Shown: positions 38,465-50,205, numbered from the whole stretch's first letter. The stretch: 63,891 nt of DNA, filler included, from Collodictyon triciliatum (GCA_043381765.1; 5 parts of 5 records of this genome joined end to end with filler, not necessarily neighbours in it); one strand, 5' to 3'. Numbers and translations: made by a program. The notes: a model not told the origin generated them from the sequence alone.

Positions 38465-39417
38465 TTTTTTGTTTTTTTGTTTTTTGTTTTTTTGTTTTTT
38501 TGTTTTTTTGTTTTTTGTTTTTTGTTTTTGTTTTTGTTTTTGTTTTGGCGCGTTGGGCAGCGCACGTACACGCATTACTTGCGATGAACCAGAATTTGAA
38601 ACAGCGACCTCACGCAGAATTGTTATAAATGTATTGTATTGATAATAAATTTATATTAATCATAATGGTTATTAAACAAAATATTAATGCAGTAATCCAA
38701 ATTATAATTATTGTATGAATTCCATTTTTGTAATTCTATTTTGATTTCAAAATACGAAAATTCAAAACTCGCTGACGTCATAACATCTACACGCCAAACA
38801 CAGAGACCAACAACCGATTGTAATATTATAAGCCAATCTCAATGTCCTCGGCCACTTCCCTAGCATGTACTCATGAGTTGTTCAATCGTGAGCTTACACA
38901 CGACTTCAGAAGAAAGCACAGATAACCTGGCCCACAAAATCGCAGCAACCATGGCCAACAGTCAAAATGCCTCACTGCACACAAATAATGAGTGCGGCCC
39001 TGCCCTTCGCTCTGGTGCAAAGTGAGCGCTTCTCGGAGAATCCCTCCTGAATCCGCAGTCAAACACGTCCCAACGGTTCTCAACAGCCAAAGTCGACGAG
39101 TTGCTTACCCAGCGCACCGAAAAAAAACAACCTCTACAACTGTGACAGCCTTCTTCCTACTATAATCACAAGACGAAAGTAGCCGTTGCGAGTCGAGACA
39201 ACCCCGGAAACGCCCGGTTGGCTCATCGCAAAGCCCAGAGCGAGGCAATACCCGCGCGCAGCTGCTATCAGCACACCCCTTCACAAACCCCTTATTCTAT
39301 TTCCTTGGCCATCTGTCTCACTTGCTCGCTTCTTAGGTCTCCCCATCCTGTCATCCGACCGACCCAGTTGAATTAACTCAACCCCGCAGAAGCCATACAC
39401 TCTGCCGTCCGAGAAGA

Positions 39418-42400: not shown

Positions 42401-43584
42401 TAGCAACACCACTCCATTCATATAAGTACTAGGCGCTAATCAACACACACTCTTTCATTTTTATCATCCACCCAGATAAACTGAAAGCCACTCTCTGGCT
42501 GACCAAATGGGTTGACTACTCAAACAAGTATGGACTCGGCTACCAGCTTAGTGACGGAATCTATGGTGTCTTTTTCAATGATACGACAAAGATTGTGCTC
42601 CACAGTGACGATGAGTATGTTTATTATCTCCCCTAATACTATCCGACTGAAGTCATGTATTGGACAATTCGATGACTCATGACTTTATTGCGTCATATAC
42701 GAAGAAACATTATAGGAGTTTCATGACACAATCTGAACACGCTCACCCATCCTTTAGGCACTTTGATTACATTCCGTTCCACGCCTCACAAGTACCAGAC
42801 ACCAGGGAAACCTACACCCTCTTGTCTCATCCCCAGTCCCTGCAAAAGAAAGTTACTCTGCTCAAGTACTTTAAGAACTACCTTGTCGAACACTCGGCCA
42901 CACAGGTTCCTAGAGCAACCTCGAGGTCTGGCGAAGTACACGATGCAGAGTCTGGAGCTCCTGTGTATGTCAAAAAGTGGATGCGGACCAAGCATGCCAT
43001 TATCTTCCGCCTCAGTAATCGGAATGTCCAGGTGAGCCGTGGGACTAATTCCTACAATACCGCTCTTCGCTCTATGTGCGGCTTTTTGAGTGCATTGTAT
43101 CACATCAAATCGCTGAAAATCAGAGCAACGCTTCTCACCGCTCGCTGGCTTTGTTCTCCTTTGTAACGCGCAATCCGTCCCACAGGTGAACTTTTTCGAC
43201 CACACCAAAGTCATTCTTTCGTCCGAGGGGCAGATTGTCACATACATCAATAAGAAACGAGAGATGAGCACGTACAGCATATCGTCTGTCTCTCGCGAAC
43301 AAACGCCCGACCTTGTCAGCCGGCTGAAGTATACGAAGGTATTACCCAATCCATTACCAACACAAAAGCAAAAAAACAAAAAACAAAAAACAAAAACAAA
43401 AACAGAAACAAAAGCAAAAACAAAAACAAAAAGATGCAATTCTCACGTCCGGACTGTGTCCTTGGCGTCTGGCAGCAGCTGTGCGCGCAACAATTAACAT
43501 TGCACACACGCTGAGACAGTAGAAACAACGTTCCTAAGGCCAATAACAATATAGGATGTGCTGTACCGTCTCATTCACAAGTAG
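39418..43584 (+). CDS. PLK1: Polo-like serine/threonine kinase
   Basis: Kinase motifs LGK|GGFATCY, IHRDLKLGNLF, MGDFGLA, TICGTPNYIAPE. Polo boxes WLTKWVDYSNKYGLGYQLS and KKWMRTKHAIIFRLSNRNVQ|VNFFDHTK. Stop TAG at 43582-43584. The start is tentative. Confidence 0.96.
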
Positions 43585-44334
43585 CTATCGAAACTGTCCT
43601 CGATCACTTCGGTTACTTCACAGCCAAGTTGCCCACACTTATGGAAGCACTCCTTGTGAGCAGTATCTTCTCCGACGCCCGCTGTCCTATTCTTCTGGGC
43701 CCAGTGTTCTGCGGTGTGTGTTCATTGTGCCCAGATTCATCCAAACCTCTGCCCTCAAACGCGCTCTCTACCTTCGGTATCAGCGGTGGTGCCGTCCCTT
43801 TTCCCTTCTTTTCCCTTTTTTTTTTCTTTTTCGTATCGCAAGCCTCGTGTACATGAATGTGAATAAACGTGATCACACCGACAGAGAGACAGACTTGAGA
43901 GGATCAATAAAAAACAAAACAAACGCAATTAATAGGAAATAGCCTCTTTTGCTGAGAAATAAGACACAGAGAGACATAGGAGACACCCTCCAGAAAATAA
44001 TATCATTGCACTGGCGTTCTTTCCTTCAGCTCTCAACCCACCACATCCCGAAGCCGAAAAAAAAAAAAAACACGCAAGCGATCAGAAAGAGCGATCCTGA
44101 GAAGGACGAGATCGGCGCCACAGCCCTGCGCCAATGAGTGCCTACTGACCGAACGCAAACTGAGAAGGCCGACGAAGCCAACCCAGAGAGCGAAAAGGTC
44201 ACTCGACCGTATCCTTTGCAACACAGGCTATGCACAGAGACACACCGACGACCAAGACGCCAGCTGCCACCGACCTGTGAGTCCAACAACCTACTAATAG
44301 GACAGATCAAGCTCTTTCAAACAAAAAACAGAAA

Positions 44335-44490
<156 letters not shown>

Positions 44491-45319
44491 AGGTGAACAA
44501 ATAACGAGCTATCGAGCTCTAGCCGTCAACCCATGGATAGCAAGATAAATATGAATATAGTGCTCAGTGTTGGTAGCTCTGATTCATTCATCTATTTCTT
44601 TTCTCTTTTTTCTTCTTTTTCTTCTTCCTTTTCCTTTTTTATCTTTCTCTTCGGTTTCATTCAGCCTGTTAATGGATAAACTTCATTACAAATGTTGTGA
44701 CGAACTTGGTTTTATCCCTTTCAAGACACAACACTTTTAATACAACGAAAGTGTACCCATATATAACAGTTTATTGCACAGACAATCATCGAATTAAATC
44801 TGTATTGACAAAAGCAGGAGCTTTGATGTATCCAAGAAACAATCTGAACAATATAGCAGTATGGTTAGTATATATATAATAAGGTTAAAATACTTAATAA
44901 TCTCATTCTATTCATGTAATCAATTTATATTTATTTTCCATTTATGTAATATTATCGCATTAAAATTCAAAAAATGACAAACAAGCCCTTGTCTTGGCCC
45001 AGACAGAACCCACCCAATAAACCTGCCACCGAACATGCATTCCAAAAAAGCATACTATCCACACTTGCGGTGGTAATCATGTTGTTTGGGCCGATATGTT
45101 GACTTTCAATTGCAATGGCTATACGGCTGTCCCTTCGAACTCGCCGAATCGGCTCTCAGGGTTTTGTCTCAAATCATTTTTAAAAAAACTGTGTGTTTGT
45201 TTGCCACAATGCGCACATTTTGAGAGTCTCGGTAGATGCTTCATTTTACCTAAATTGATTTTTACAGTTTTTTTTTTAATTAAATTGACTGTTTGACTGA
45301 AGTTTTATTGAAATTGAAA

Positions 45320-47300
45320 AAACGGTAGTTTTCTAAAGGAAAAAGCAAACCAAAGACTTTCAGATGAAGAAAAGAAAAGTCTTGAGTCTGAGAATCTAAA
45401 GTCGGTAAAATCAGGCTATCAAAATGTGAAAACATCTCTAAAGCCGGATGTAAAGAATGCGGATGACTATTACAAAATCAACGGTACGGTTTTATTGTAT
45501 CATAACTTGGTTACCGACACTTATCTGTTTGTAAGATGTTACATATTGAAATCAAAACAAGTCTCAACAATCGATGAAATGTTTTTTTGTACGCTTTAAA
45601 GACAGTCGGAGTAGTTTCACAAGATAGACCCACAAGATTAAAACAACAGAAATGAGAGATGGCATGATGGCTTTTTATCTCAATGATTTTCGATTCATTT
45701 TGTCCCGATAAGAACGCTTTCCGTTGGTTAGACTGTCTCATGTATTACCGTACTTAGCGAGGCAAATGCTAACAGCTTATCATAATTACATTAACGAGCA
45801 TTATGTAAAAGGTTACCGCGCTTTATAAGTCAAACAGCTCCTAAAGATGAGAATATTATGATAGCTGTTTAAAAGGCAGAGCTACGAAAGTTAAAAAAAA
45901 AAAAGACATCTTCGTGAAACTCGAAATACTGGAGCAATATAAAGGATGGGCTACACCGCATTTGAATCGTATCATTCCCAGCGATATTGTAAAAACTATC
46001 GAATATGACGTCAAAGTCAATCCAAACAAGTACATTCCATGTCTGATTTACATGAATCGCATTTTTTGAGGACATTGGAACAATCCTGCTTCAACCAATC
46101 CCTATAAGAACTAACAATATACCCTGTCATATTACTCTAGTAGCTGCATGTTTGATATATCTATTAGTATCAAATGGAAAAACATGATTAAAGAAGAATA
46201 TATCAGGATGCAAAGAGACACTATGGGGTTGACTTCTTTGAAATGAAGAGTGTCTTTCATCAAAGAGACTACAATTTTAAATACATGATGCAAACAGACG
46301 GCTTGGCGGTGACATTATTGTTTAAAAAGAAAGCTATTTCAAGTTCGAAATTCAAAATGTAATAAAAAAACCTAAGAATGTTTATATATATAGATGAACT
46401 TTCCGAAGAGCAGTTATCTTTATTAGCGAAAAAAAATTAGTTGGAGTGGACGCAGGCAAGTTTAATTTTGTTTACATGGTGGATGAGACAGGTAAGAAAT
46501 TACATTACACGGCACACCAAAGAAGACATGCTAGCAAATCTCTTAAAAATCACAAAATACTCTTGTGGGAGAAAAAAGAAAAGTACAATTATTCAGGGAT
46601 ATACATGGCAATAGGTTTACAAATTGCTGTTTCTTTTGGTCACATGACTTAAGAAGAGAATCAGCAGTTTGAGACATCAAGAGTATCTTAAATCGATTTA
46701 GAGATAGAACTGAGTAGACATAATTCATGCACGGTCGATTATGAACAATTTCGAAAATATGTACCTATGAAACCAAGAGACCAGATAGAATTATCCACAT
46801 TTTATGAACATGTAACTTTTCGAAAGATGAGATGGATACATTATGTTAATACAAAAAGAACCGAACAATGGTTTATGGACCGAATCGAAAAGGCATTTGG
46901 CAAGGATGCTGTACTGGTGTATTGAAACTGGAGCAGAAAATCTCAGATGAAACATTCTAAGCCAACCATCGGAAGAGGATTACGAAAAATACTATCCAAA
47001 CGTTTTGAAACAGTTATTGTAGATGAATTAAAAACCTCCAAGATGTGTTGCAACTGCGAAAAAGAACTGGAATACGTGAAACCGAAAGGAAGTAAAAAAA
47101 AGTGTATAGATGTCTCATGTGTAAAGAATGCAATCGCTCAGAAAGCAAACAAAGTGTATTCTTGACAAATGACTCTAACGTCGCTAAAAATATACTCAAG
47201 AAAGTTCTTTCAATTCTTCAAAAAAAAATTATACACCTTCCTCTAAAAAACAGGCTGTCGGGTCTTTCTTGGCAACCTTCACCACTACGTGACCCTTGTG
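45320..47300 (+). mobile_element. Fanzor1-type (eukaryotic TnpB-like RuvC nuclease) ORF, pseudogenised, intronless
   Basis: Motifs appear in order across frameshifts and stops: YQNVKTSLK; NLVTDTYLFVRCYIL; VLPYLARQMLTAYHNYINEHY; DVKVNPNKYIPCLIYMN; NFKYMMQTDGLAVTLLF; RuvC-I GVDAG (Asp codon 46449); FYEHVTFRKMRWIHYVNTKRTE; VY*NWS (TGA 46923); PTIGRGLR; RuvC-II VDELKTSKMCCNC (Glu codon 47025); RCLMCKEC; RuvC-III TNDSNVAKNI (Asp codon 47171). Confidence 0.88.
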
Positions 47301-47400
47301 AAAAAAGTGGCGAGACGTTGGATACTAGCGCACCAAGTTTGCCAGTCGAAAGATGGTATTCTCCTAAGCGAAACAGAAATCTAAGCTCGCGCTAGACCAA
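47230..47400 (+). ncRNA. Candidate Fanzor omega-RNA scaffold / element right end
   Basis: GC-richer segment overlapping and following the ORF 3' end. Closing stem CTAGCGC(47325-47331)/GCGCTAG(47389-47395), internal GAAA-tetraloop hairpin 47340-47358, and CCACT/AGTGG stem at 47282-47310. The position is where TnpB/Fanzor guide RNAs are encoded. Confidence 0.45.
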
Positions 47401-48436
47401 GCGCAATCTATGTGCCCTTGCGATGCCTACGCCCAGCACCCTCGCGAAGGAAAGAATCCAGAAAAGGTAACTCTGAATTAGGAAAACATTTTCCACCGAT
47501 AGAATTGCTTCAGAAAATTCAACCAATCAAACTGCGACACCAGGATTTCGAAAAACGTGCCCAAAACGCGTTGCAATAATATTTTTTTTTGAATTGACAA
47601 ACACCAAAAACCAAAATTTGACTATCCAAGAAGAAAACCCAAAGCAAAAGTCCAAAAGCGAAATAAGCCATTGGCGAATCCATAAATTTTTTTTTTCCTT
47701 TCCTTTTTTCCTTTGTTTCGCTTCTGTTCGGCGCCAGTTCTCAAGCATAATCAAAATCAAAAATAAAAATAAAAATAAAAAAACACAAACACATAATTGC
47801 AATTGGGCTCGCTTTCCATTCGCCCGTTTCCACATTTTGTTCTTGGCGTTCAACATCCGCAAAGCCATAACCGAAAAGAACCGAAAGAAGACTTTGTTGC
47901 ATTGCAGGGCCATGGGCTCATTCCGCACTGGCCGGCACAGGCATGGCGAATAGTGCTGCTGTGATGGATGCACGAAGCAGCTCAGGCCGTCTTTTCCCCT
48001 TTCGTTCCCCTTTTGTACACACCTTTTTTTTTTTTATAATTTCATTTTTGGTTCGTGCATCTTCTTCATCTTTTGGGTGCACTAATCCGAAGCGCTATCC
48101 ATCATTCCTCGCTGGCCGCCTCAACGCCCAATATCGGCTGGCGGTGCTGGGATGAAGGGACGAAACAAAACAGGGAGCCCCAAGAAAGCAGGCGAAGGAA
48201 ACTATCCTCGTGGTCGCTTCTCTTGCTTGGCCTGCTGCCCTTCTAGTTCTTTTGTTCTCTCCTTTACCTCATTATTATTTATTATTATTCTGCTTCATAT
48301 ATTTATTATAAACTTAACATACTCCTTTATAGGGCCAGACGCCCACCCAGAAAGCAGCAAAGGCGAACACAAACAATCAAGAAAAAAAAAAGTAAACAAA
48401 AGAAAAGGGAAGTAAGCAAGTAAGGAAGTAGCTCTG

Positions 48437-50205
48437 ATGAGCGAATTCAAGGTCGAAGCCAGTACGGACAACGCTAGCAACACAGCCACGAGATGCCTCT
48501 CAAAAGTATCTTCCAACTCAACTCGGTAAGGTGTTACTAACCTGCTCTATACAAATAATAACAAAATAAAAACAAATAATAACAAAATAAAAGCAAACAA
48601 AAACAAACAAAAACAAACAAAAACAAACAAAAACAAACAAAAACAAACAAAAACAAACAAAAACAATAAAAGAAAGCAAAGACAGTTTCTCGTTTATACA
48701 GACATGTGCCGAAATAGCTAAAAAAGCGAACGCTCAAACAAACAACTGCAGTCTGGGCTTGCGCTTCATCCTGGAAAAGACGCATTGCTCAGCGCCTAAA
48801 GCACAGCCGCCTGCTTCGTTCCCACACCCTTTCTCGATTTGGTGCACAGAGGCTGTCAATCTCAAAGCCATCGTCATAGACCCACTCAACGCACCCACAC
48901 GCTTTGACTTTGTCCGTATCGCCCTTTTCGATGTCGACTACAACCCCATTGTCCATGGACTCAAATCGTTCAACAAGGAGCTCACGGTATGATACCATTT
49001 ACCACCAAATATTTGCATACTTTCTGCATAAGCACATGCAATAGTTGAAGGGACAAATTCGTAGCCAACGTTCACGCCCGCAAAATCAAAAAGAGCATCT
49101 CCTCTCCATGTTCTCACAAAAAAAATTTTTTTTCTGGTCTCTGGTATACATGCGCATACCTGCAGACATATCTAGATTGCGAGTTCAAGAAGGACGCCTT
49201 TTACTCTCCGAAGTTCGGAGTAGGGAAAACAAGCAGCGAGATTTTTGGGTGTCTTCTAGGCGAGTTCCCAAGTCGCCAGGGCGGCCTTGTGCGACTGGGC
49301 TTTATGGTCGGCCTAGAAAACACCATATACATCCATTACCTTCCTGAATTCTGGAGCGTCAGTAAGCTTCCTTTACTTCGCGAGGAAAACCCCATGTGGC
49401 GCAACATCGCAGACCATCGCGGGTATGGCCTCAACACCCCGATACATCTTAAGTGCAAGAGCCGTCGGGTGATGAGGTGTGGGAGGCGTAGGACGCTTCC
49501 CAACAAGAGATTCTCTTCGACATTGCATCGAAGCGATCCTTCTTCGACTTCCAATACTGACAAAGCACTAGTTCTCACACCTGACAACGAATACAATTCT
49601 GACGACAAGGACGCTCAGGGACAGAATCGCTTCACATACGAGGCCGATTTTACTGGTTTGTGTCTTTTCTTCTTTTCTATCCTTTTCTTTGTAATCTCTA
49701 TCGTTTCCACTTTTTACATTCAAAAAAAGATATCTCATTTTGCCCCTTCACTAACTCTAACTCACTCTGTGCGTGAGATGAAGAGAAAAGTTATCCCAAT
49801 TCAAAAATGTCGTTCTGCGTGATACCACGATACAATACTGCATTCAATTAATAGAGAAAACAACATCATATTAACATACAAACACAACCAGAGTACTGCC
49901 AGGAACAGACCTTTCGTCTAAAGACAGAGTCATTCCTTCAACTCCCGTCTGTTTGGTACAACCTATTTGTCCAGCCCTCTGGCTCTGGCGCATCACAGAT
50001 CTCGCCAAAAAGGGCTGTTCAGGACCAGTCTAGTCCGACCTCCCTAACAACGAACCCTGAAGCGCCACAAGTTCAGCGGAGTCGTGTCAATCCAGCGCCC
50101 TCCCCAAAAGTAGGGCTGGAGCTCTTCAGTCGCCAGTTTGACCCTTTCTGGGACAAAATACATCGGGAGTCAGAGACACTCCATCGGTGTCTCCAGGAGA
50201 ACTAA
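48437..50205 (+). CDS. Uncharacterised 4-exon protein; shares a ~130-aa domain with the gene at 53517-54753
   Basis: Exons at about 48437-48525, 48751-48986, 49166-49655 and 49892-50205 splice in frame at GT-AG sites to a TAA stop. Confidence 0.75.

Follow-up and report, generated by a model that had tools for sequence, protein, structure and literature searches.

The guide RNA of TnpB nucleases in IS200/IS605 elements (omegaRNA or reRNA) extends over the nuclease gene's 3' end and the transposon's right end, and its guide is taken from the flanking DNA. A sequence-only reading of a 63,891-nt stretch of DNA, hereafter the window, placed a comparable arrangement at 47230-47420, where complementary segments at the 3' end of a Fanzor gene were taken as a scaffold and the bases soon after about 47396 as the guide. 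The question raised by this locus is whether the segment holds an omegaRNA scaffold and, if it does, where the element ends and a guide would begin.

The Fanzor1 gene remnant

A TnpB-like protein was found in pieces across the reading frames of 45250-47450. When 46437-47165 was used as a protein query, with stops read as X, one protein of more than 426 amino acids was recovered. This metagenomic protein, P0002, is intact, comprises 648 amino acids, is 63% identical to the query and was the sole protein above 46% identity among 242 matches. Compared with solved Fanzor1 chains, P0002 matched GtFz1 of Guillardia theta best (E 2e-28), followed by PpFz1 of Parasitella parasitica (3e-24) and SpuFz1 of Spizellomyces punctatus (4e-23). 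The window copy aligned with P0002 residues 2-626 in four tblastn pieces, with at least three frameshifts relative to P0002, and its RuvC motifs (GVDAG, VDELKTSK and NDSNVAKNI) are still legible. Because its frames alternate, 16 internal stops interrupt it and every other aligned copy has GGA in place of the TGA at 46923 (among the matches listed), the gene is a dead Fanzor1 copy.

45366..47292, + strand: dead Fanzor1 gene copy, from tblastn against P0002, with decayed frames and the family stop TGA at 47290-47292

The tail of P0002 (residues 623-642) aligned with 47230-47289, with KKQAVG in common (E 0.019 in a single comparison). As this tail aligns to the frame starting at 47230, the family stop codon was placed at 47290-47292. 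The frame that runs on to 47395 differs from the family frame beyond about 47230, and the 97-amino-acid frame at 47102-47392 had no homologue when used as a protein query. Pfam searches of the window's ORF pieces returned only a subthreshold match to the Cas12f1-like TNB domain (E 0.038), and a Pfam scan of P0002 and P0001 returned no match. The flagged segment had been assigned to a Fanzor 3' end. A Fanzor1 remnant on the same strand does have its 3' end here, with the family frame reaching as far as 47292 within the segment.

Other copies and the ends of the element

No second copy of the element was found within the window. Ten public runs carry small shares of the stretch (0.05-0.14), none of them recorded as RNA, and contigs of four runs were aligned to 44600-49000 at 80% likeness. 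Run X10 yielded 495 aligned contigs, with 31 at 99% likeness or above, 100 at 95-99%, 206 at 90-95% and 158 below 90%. Of the 15 joints listed for this run, five were GT..AG, one of them in a neighbouring gene (48525-48750), and X10 resembles RNA from the same organism or a near relative, which is a tool's guess only. The X10 contigs cannot show RNA ends. Likeness to the window was lost on the right side as follows.

Summed look-alike depth over 47099-47245, 47246-47392 and 47393-47539, respectively:
X10: 218, 30.7 and 0
X3: 2.8, 2.95 and 0
X1: 6.1, 8.5 and 1.6

The residual depth of 1.6 in X1 fits one 99%-alike contig at 47433-47677, and among the matches listed no look-alike contig in any of the four runs covered 47393-47432. 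The stretch 47268-47344 is common to other copies (X3 records 22-25). One of these contigs, X3 record 25, matched 47301-47344 and continued with 46 unlike letters (one contig, among the matches listed). Thirty of these letters aligned with the window flank no better than shuffles did, with 199 of 1,000 shuffles doing as well over 47345-47480 and 101 of 1,000 over 47345-47390. On the left side, three X10 contigs began matching at 44694, and the flanks preceding that position were unlike the window and mutually different (agreement 0.61, among the matches listed). When the left end was compared with the reverse-complemented right end, the best local alignment identified a terminal inverted repeat.

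44694..44697, + strand: GTTG just outside the left inverted repeat, candidate TAM-like conserved flank
44698..44710, + strand: left terminal inverted repeat TGACGAACTTGGT
47332..47344, + strand: right terminal inverted repeat ACCAAGTTTGCCA, end of the element by the repeat alignment and the divergence of X3 record 25

The two repeats match at 11 of 13 positions, and a gapped extension to about 25 nt is possible. A match of this quality within 4 nt of both ends, as preset by the contig data, was reached in 16 of 20,000 shuffles. Without preset ends, the alignment score across both regions was not significant (176 of 1,000 shuffles). As the repeats match the preset ends, the element spans about 44698-47344, or 2.65 kb, a size near that of the 2.6-kb contigs bearing P0002. 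At up to two mismatches, the right-end 13-mer matched five places in the window (2.03 expected), the left repeat among them. Other matches (18520, 28127 and 42987) had no convincing upstream similarity, and that at 42987 lies inside a host ORF. A direct 13-mer, GAAAAGGT(C/A)ACTC at 44192 and 47461, was considered as a target duplication and rejected as being at chance level (44 of 200 shuffles). A bacterial promoter and terminator scan was set aside because the host is eukaryotic.

The sequence-only reading had predicted that similarity between copies would drop sharply at the end of the element. Among the matches listed, likeness was indeed lost, at about 47344 and not at about 47396. Because look-alike depth is lost, one contig diverges at 47344 and the inverted repeat ends there, the right end of the element seems to lie at 47344, about 50 bases before the proposed junction; the depth bins are 147 nt wide, and the boundary is drawn from few contigs among the matches listed. 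Most X10 contigs end before about 47270, which counts against the explanation favored below.

Proposed stems and the candidate scaffold

All of the stems proposed for 47230-47420 are present in the sequence. CTAGCGC (47325-47331) is perfectly complementary to GCGCTAG (47389-47395), AGTTT (47336-47340) can pair with AAGCT (47383-47387) with one G-T pair, TGCCAGTCGAAAGATGGTA at 47340-47358 forms a hairpin whose loop is GAAA, and the upstream alternatives TTCAC/GTGAA and CCACT/AGTGG lie within 47278-47311.

47325..47395, + strand: proposed closing stem and inner pairings, spanning the element end and flank, judged coincidental

Folded as RNA, 47230-47420 was not beyond chance, with a minimum free energy of -45.7 kcal/mol, whereas shuffles averaged -42.9 kcal/mol (z -0.65; equaled by 41 of 200 shuffles). 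Two windows chosen post hoc scored better: 47322-47398, placed around the 7-bp stem (z -2.53; 5 of 200 shuffles), and 47338-47360, holding the small hairpin (z -3.22; 2 of 200). The minus strand of 47322-47398 gave z -0.40. Block-shuffled copies of the window contain about 5,200 perfect 7-bp inverted repeats whose loops measure 3-70 nt, so that such repeats are very common. Searches of 44000-49000 against Rfam returned a single match, a subthreshold miRNA elsewhere in that region, and 47000-47700 had no match at E values up to 1. A tRNA-like reading of the 7-bp stem was rejected, as ARAGORN found no tRNA in 46800-48000. The listed stems exist, yet they do not convincingly exceed chance.

A scaffold closed by CTAGCGC/GCGCTAG that encloses the GNRA hairpin, its guide starting soon after 47396, would draw on the existence of these stems and on the scores of the two small windows, and the depth bins alone would permit an element end anywhere up to 47392. 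However, those windows were picked after the stems had been seen, the whole segment folds no better than shuffles, and 7-bp inverted repeats are common by chance. Moreover, the terminal repeat stops at 47344, and the X3 contig diverges past that position into letters that do not align to the window flank. The boundary falls inside the GNRA hairpin and 45-51 nt ahead of the 3' arm of the closing stem; therefore, 47389-47395, the AAGCT arm and most of the hairpin are flank and not scaffold. As the closing stem and the hairpin join element to flank, they cannot be a conserved scaffold, and 47325-47395 fails both as a region common to copies and as a fold compared with shuffles. The closing stem, the AGTTT/AAGCT pairing and the GNRA hairpin, which pair element with flank or flank with flank, most likely arose by chance, and a scaffold of this shape is very improbable, the least probable of the readings weighed here.

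A better candidate is formed by the upstream alternative stems, which lie inside the conserved right end. This conserved part, 47230-47344, consists of the last codons, the stop codon and 52 further bases ending in the right repeat.

47268..47344, + strand: candidate omegaRNA scaffold relic, 77 nt, positioned by analogy with SpuFz1 and common to other copies
47278..47314, + strand: candidate first stem-loop TTCACCACT / AGTGGCGAG, in the minimum free energy (MFE) structure (z -1.44; 13 of 200 shuffles)
47318..47336, + strand: candidate second stem TTGG/CCAA with an 11-nt loop, an MFE alternative (z -0.82; 38 of 200 shuffles, not significant)
47345..47362, + strand: probable host flank and would-be guide; other copies stop covering the sequence at this point or short of 47393

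The 77-nt candidate includes the ORF end, the stop codon and the right end of the element with its inverted repeat. In the predicted first stem-loop, which is the upstream CCACT/AGTGG stem of the sequence-only reading, 47278-47286 would pair with 47306-47314 through 5+3 pairs around an A.C mismatch (47281/47311), and the stop codon would lie in the loop. One X3 copy has T at 47311, which would close the mismatch to give nine pairs (among the matches listed). The second stem would pair 47318-47321 with 47333-47336, its 3' arm lying inside the right repeat, and an MFE alternative to it is a longer hairpin of 47308-47321 with 47333-47344. The last six bases of the right repeat are complementary to TGGCAA at 47270-47275, and this outer helix, TGGCAA/TTGCCA (47270-47275 with 47339-47344), is present in the MFE structure. 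On the plus strand, the fold of 47268-47344 was not significant (z -0.61; equaled by 51 of 200 shuffles), and neither the candidate nor any of its parts beat shuffles (z -0.4 to -1.4). The minus strand of the candidate and its parts scored slightly better (z -1.4 to -1.7).

By analogy with SpuFz1, 47268-47344, with the upstream alternative stem inside it, is plausibly the scaffold relic. The general omegaRNA idea suits this place, but the specific structure and guide junction do not: with the element ending at 47344, any guide would begin at 47345 and not after about 47396. The would-be guide at 47345-47362 had no second match in the window at up to three mismatches. As the copy is dead, any RNA read from it would at best be a relic.

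Right-end RNA in relatives and known systems

A metagenome scan for related loci returned 36 with 34-54% identity to P0002 (best tblastn segment), none of them of the window's own family. A viral contig search returned 15 loci, all of the giant-virus group, and a genome contig search returned none. A large group of loci came from bins of lake giant viruses (L002-L029 and L037-L051) and was 37-39% identical to P0002. Conservation and structure at the 3' end were analyzed in the 23 loci that include this end, of which 17 are distinct. In the giant-virus loci, nucleotide conservation begins within the ORF (about 60 nt inside it) and continues for 77-132 nt beyond the stop codon, where it ends with ...AAAGGTGTA, and mean pairwise identity falls from 0.78 over the last 30 nt to 0.32 over the next 30 (120 pairs). 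RNAalifold predicted 31 pairs in four helices. Paired cells amounted to 97.9%, compared with 43-63% for slid partners, seven pairs showed changes on both sides, and the covariation score was reached by none of 500 shuffles. The last helix, of 12 bp, joins the element's terminal bases to an internal stretch, and the scaffold often lies behind a second conserved upstream ORF.

A covariance model of the whole structure (R1) had no match at 47230-47480; its best window matches (E 0.5) lay in unrelated places, and it had no match in loci L001, L021 and L025. Likewise, a model of the first giant-virus hairpin (R2) had no match at 47230-47480; its only matches were weak ones, to L026 (E 0.076) and L021 (E 0.68), both of them intermediate loci. 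The Fanzor1 right-end RNA of the wider clade, as known from giant-virus loci, does not carry over to the window. Common short motifs (TTCACCAC ... AAAAAGT..GAC) were seen by eye and are a mere lead.

These relatives bear on two further readings. In one, the scaffold would be long, as in the giant viruses. The element would then reach about 47470, a place at which AGAAAAGGTAA is similar to the ...AAAAGGTGTAA that terminates the relatives, and 47345-47460 would be a fast-changing internal part. The terminal motif is common to the giant-virus group, L001 and L025, the giant-virus internal part does vary (137-192 nt, with an insertion of about 50 nt in 3 of 17 loci), and TTGCC (47339-47343) could pair with GGTAA (47466-47470), as read from the sequence. 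Against these points, 47393-47432 is uncovered in all four runs among the matches listed, R1 has no match there, the terminal repeat fits an end at 47344, and the 13-mer at 44192 that looks like the motif is no more than chance would give. We consider such a long scaffold very unlikely. In the other reading, the right end would be nothing but the inverted repeat and the 3' untranslated region of a dead gene, all stems in 47230-47420 being chance, with no RNA function. The weak plus-strand z-scores throughout the conserved part agree with this, as do the searches with Rfam, R1 and R2, all without a match. However, relatives at 37-45% protein identity have a covarying structure at the same place, and a base change in one X3 copy would remove the A.C mismatch from the candidate first stem. 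Furthermore, in the parts of two published accounts that deal with this RNA, the characterized Fanzor1 systems all need a right-end omegaRNA (PMC11423790, PMC10432273). For this dead copy, absence of RNA function is unlikely, if less so than a long scaffold.

The explanation that we favor, and regard as probable, is that the flagged segment lies across the right terminus of a dead Fanzor1 transposon bounded by inverted repeats, with a scaffold relic in its right end and host flank from 47345. The element would be a small transposon, about 44698-47344, with Fanzor1 as its only gene, and 47230-47292 would hold the final codons of the family reading frame. By the SpuFz1 analogy, 47268-47344 would once have encoded the omegaRNA scaffold, beginning with a stem-loop that encloses the stop codon, continuing with a short second stem and taking the right inverted repeat for its final paired arm. 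Host DNA would follow from 47345, its first 15 or so bases being the guide of any RNA read from this copy. A tentative extension, which we hold possible but doubtful, is that the family is alive in the source organism, transcribed and spliced, with a minimal omegaRNA of about 77 nt that carries the stop codon in the loop of its first stem and is closed by the last six bases of the right repeat (47270-47275 with 47339-47344), and with GTTG as its TAM.

The gain is mainly one of annotation: for one protist Fanzor1 element family the ends are placed, the striking stems are not its scaffold, and coordinates are provided for direct testing (scaffold 47268-47344, guide from 47345). If the tentative extension is true, use of the transposon's terminal repeat as the last scaffold stem would be a rule common to giant-virus and protist Fanzor1 elements. 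An active family, with a short scaffold and a possible 4-nt TAM, would add another compact eukaryotic RNA-guided nuclease to those awaiting characterization.

The closest design among known systems is that of SpuFz1. In the portions of the SpuFz1 report that describe its loci, these have 30-nt inverted repeats, two conserved bases outside the left repeat, and a 75-nt scaffold located after the stop codon and before the 3' repeat with a variable extension of 14-15 nt (Saito 2023, PMC10432273). As far as those portions go, the window element agrees in being about 2-2.6 kb long, bounded by inverted repeats and furnished with a Fanzor gene only, in having a few conserved bases outside the left repeat and copy-specific sequence directly after the right one, and in the approximately 75 nt from the stop-codon region to the outer end of the right repeat. 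The right repeat lies inside the candidate scaffold, as in the SpuFz1 design. In contrast to SpuFz1, the inverted repeat here is 13 bp (11 of 13 matching), possibly longer with a gap, instead of 30 nt, and the stop codon falls within the candidate first stem-loop, whereas SpuFz1 has it upstream of the scaffold. P0002 is also only distantly like SpuFz1 (8gkh, E 4e-23), and the window copy is dead.

Three Fanzor1 structures have seven pairs in their first stem-loop, and the scaffold beyond it is variable, down to one four-pair stem in PpFz1, according to the structural sections of Xu 2024 (PMC11423790). Within the compass of those sections, the window resembles GtFz1, the best solved match of P0002, and PpFz1 in its candidate first stem-loop of about seven pairs (eight are possible), which would be followed by a short second stem, as with the four pairs of PpFz1, before the guide. 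Unlike in those systems, the fold here is a single-sequence prediction that does not exceed shuffles, and its first stem has an A.C mismatch. The giant-virus Fanzor1 loci share with the window a related protein, a structure (in the window a candidate one) overlapping the last codons, a sharp loss of conservation at the element end and terminal bases that serve, or in the window would serve, as the 3' arm of the last stem. They differ in a longer scaffold (137-192 nt) that ends ...AAAGGTGTA and whose models do not match the window. IS200/IS605 elements are prokaryotic, lack inverted-repeat ends and have another scaffold; the likeness to their TnpB lies in the place of the guide RNA at the gene 3' end and element right end, with the guide from the flank. 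Overall, the locus is an ordinary decayed Fanzor1 element, of a design already published for SpuFz1 and its relatives.

Joints within and upstream of the Fanzor1 gene

Contigs from the public sequencing run X10, which is presumed to be RNA, skip two stretches of the window with GT..AG borders near the 5' end of the Fanzor1 element (45160-45327 and 45231-45327, among the joints listed). Both lie upstream of the ATG at 45366, which matches the start of P0002, an intact 648-aa metagenome relative. The position of these two joints suggests that transcripts of the family carry a spliced intron in the 5' untranslated region.

A further joint falls inside the gene itself, where one X10 contig among those listed skips 210 bases (46490-46699) at GT..AG borders. 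Yet this stretch is in frame, and it is translated and partly conserved in P0002 (HYTAHQRR...). The joint therefore reflects either optional splicing of an intron or a variant copy that carries a deletion. Near the 3' end of the gene, several small insertions and deletions between 47190 and 47232 separate the window from other copies, as seen from the loose ends and joints of the contigs listed. One of these differences, an excess of two bases, shifts the reading of the window away from the frame of the family.

Surroundings of the element in the window

The element lies downstream of an ORF at 42660-43166 (+) with a ...YVKKWMRTKHAIIFRLSNRNVQV... stretch, a putative polo-box like that of Polo-like kinases. 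At about 44336-44492, approximately 200 bases before the left end of the element, there is a long (TAA)n microsatellite. A short dispersed repeat is present in inverted orientation at 47743-47796 and 38490-38545 (78.6% alike over 56 bases), and the contig comparison also flagged 47738-47805 as a repeat, with a depth of 40 in the sequencing run X1. Outside the element, X10 contigs contain a 226-base GT..AG joint at 48525-48750; apparently an adjacent host gene is transcribed and its transcripts are spliced.

Giant-virus and intermediate relatives

In most of the giant-virus Fanzor1 loci, another conserved coding stretch (L002-L018, 100-500 bases before the Fanzor start) ends shortly ahead of the Fanzor gene and probably encodes the transposase of the element. 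It is absent from L008, L020 and L023. In 3 of the 17 distinct giant-virus scaffolds (L024:994-1181, L028:737-928 and L029:1692-1883), an insertion of approximately 50 bases, consisting of two GC-rich hairpins, occupies the variable part between the internal and terminal arms of the last stem.

The window does not contain the long hairpin of the CCCGGTTACATTC...GAATGTGACTGGG type that the intermediate loci share within their last codons (L001:1881-1920 and the matching place in L021 and L025). Among these three loci, this hairpin shows apparent two-sided changes.
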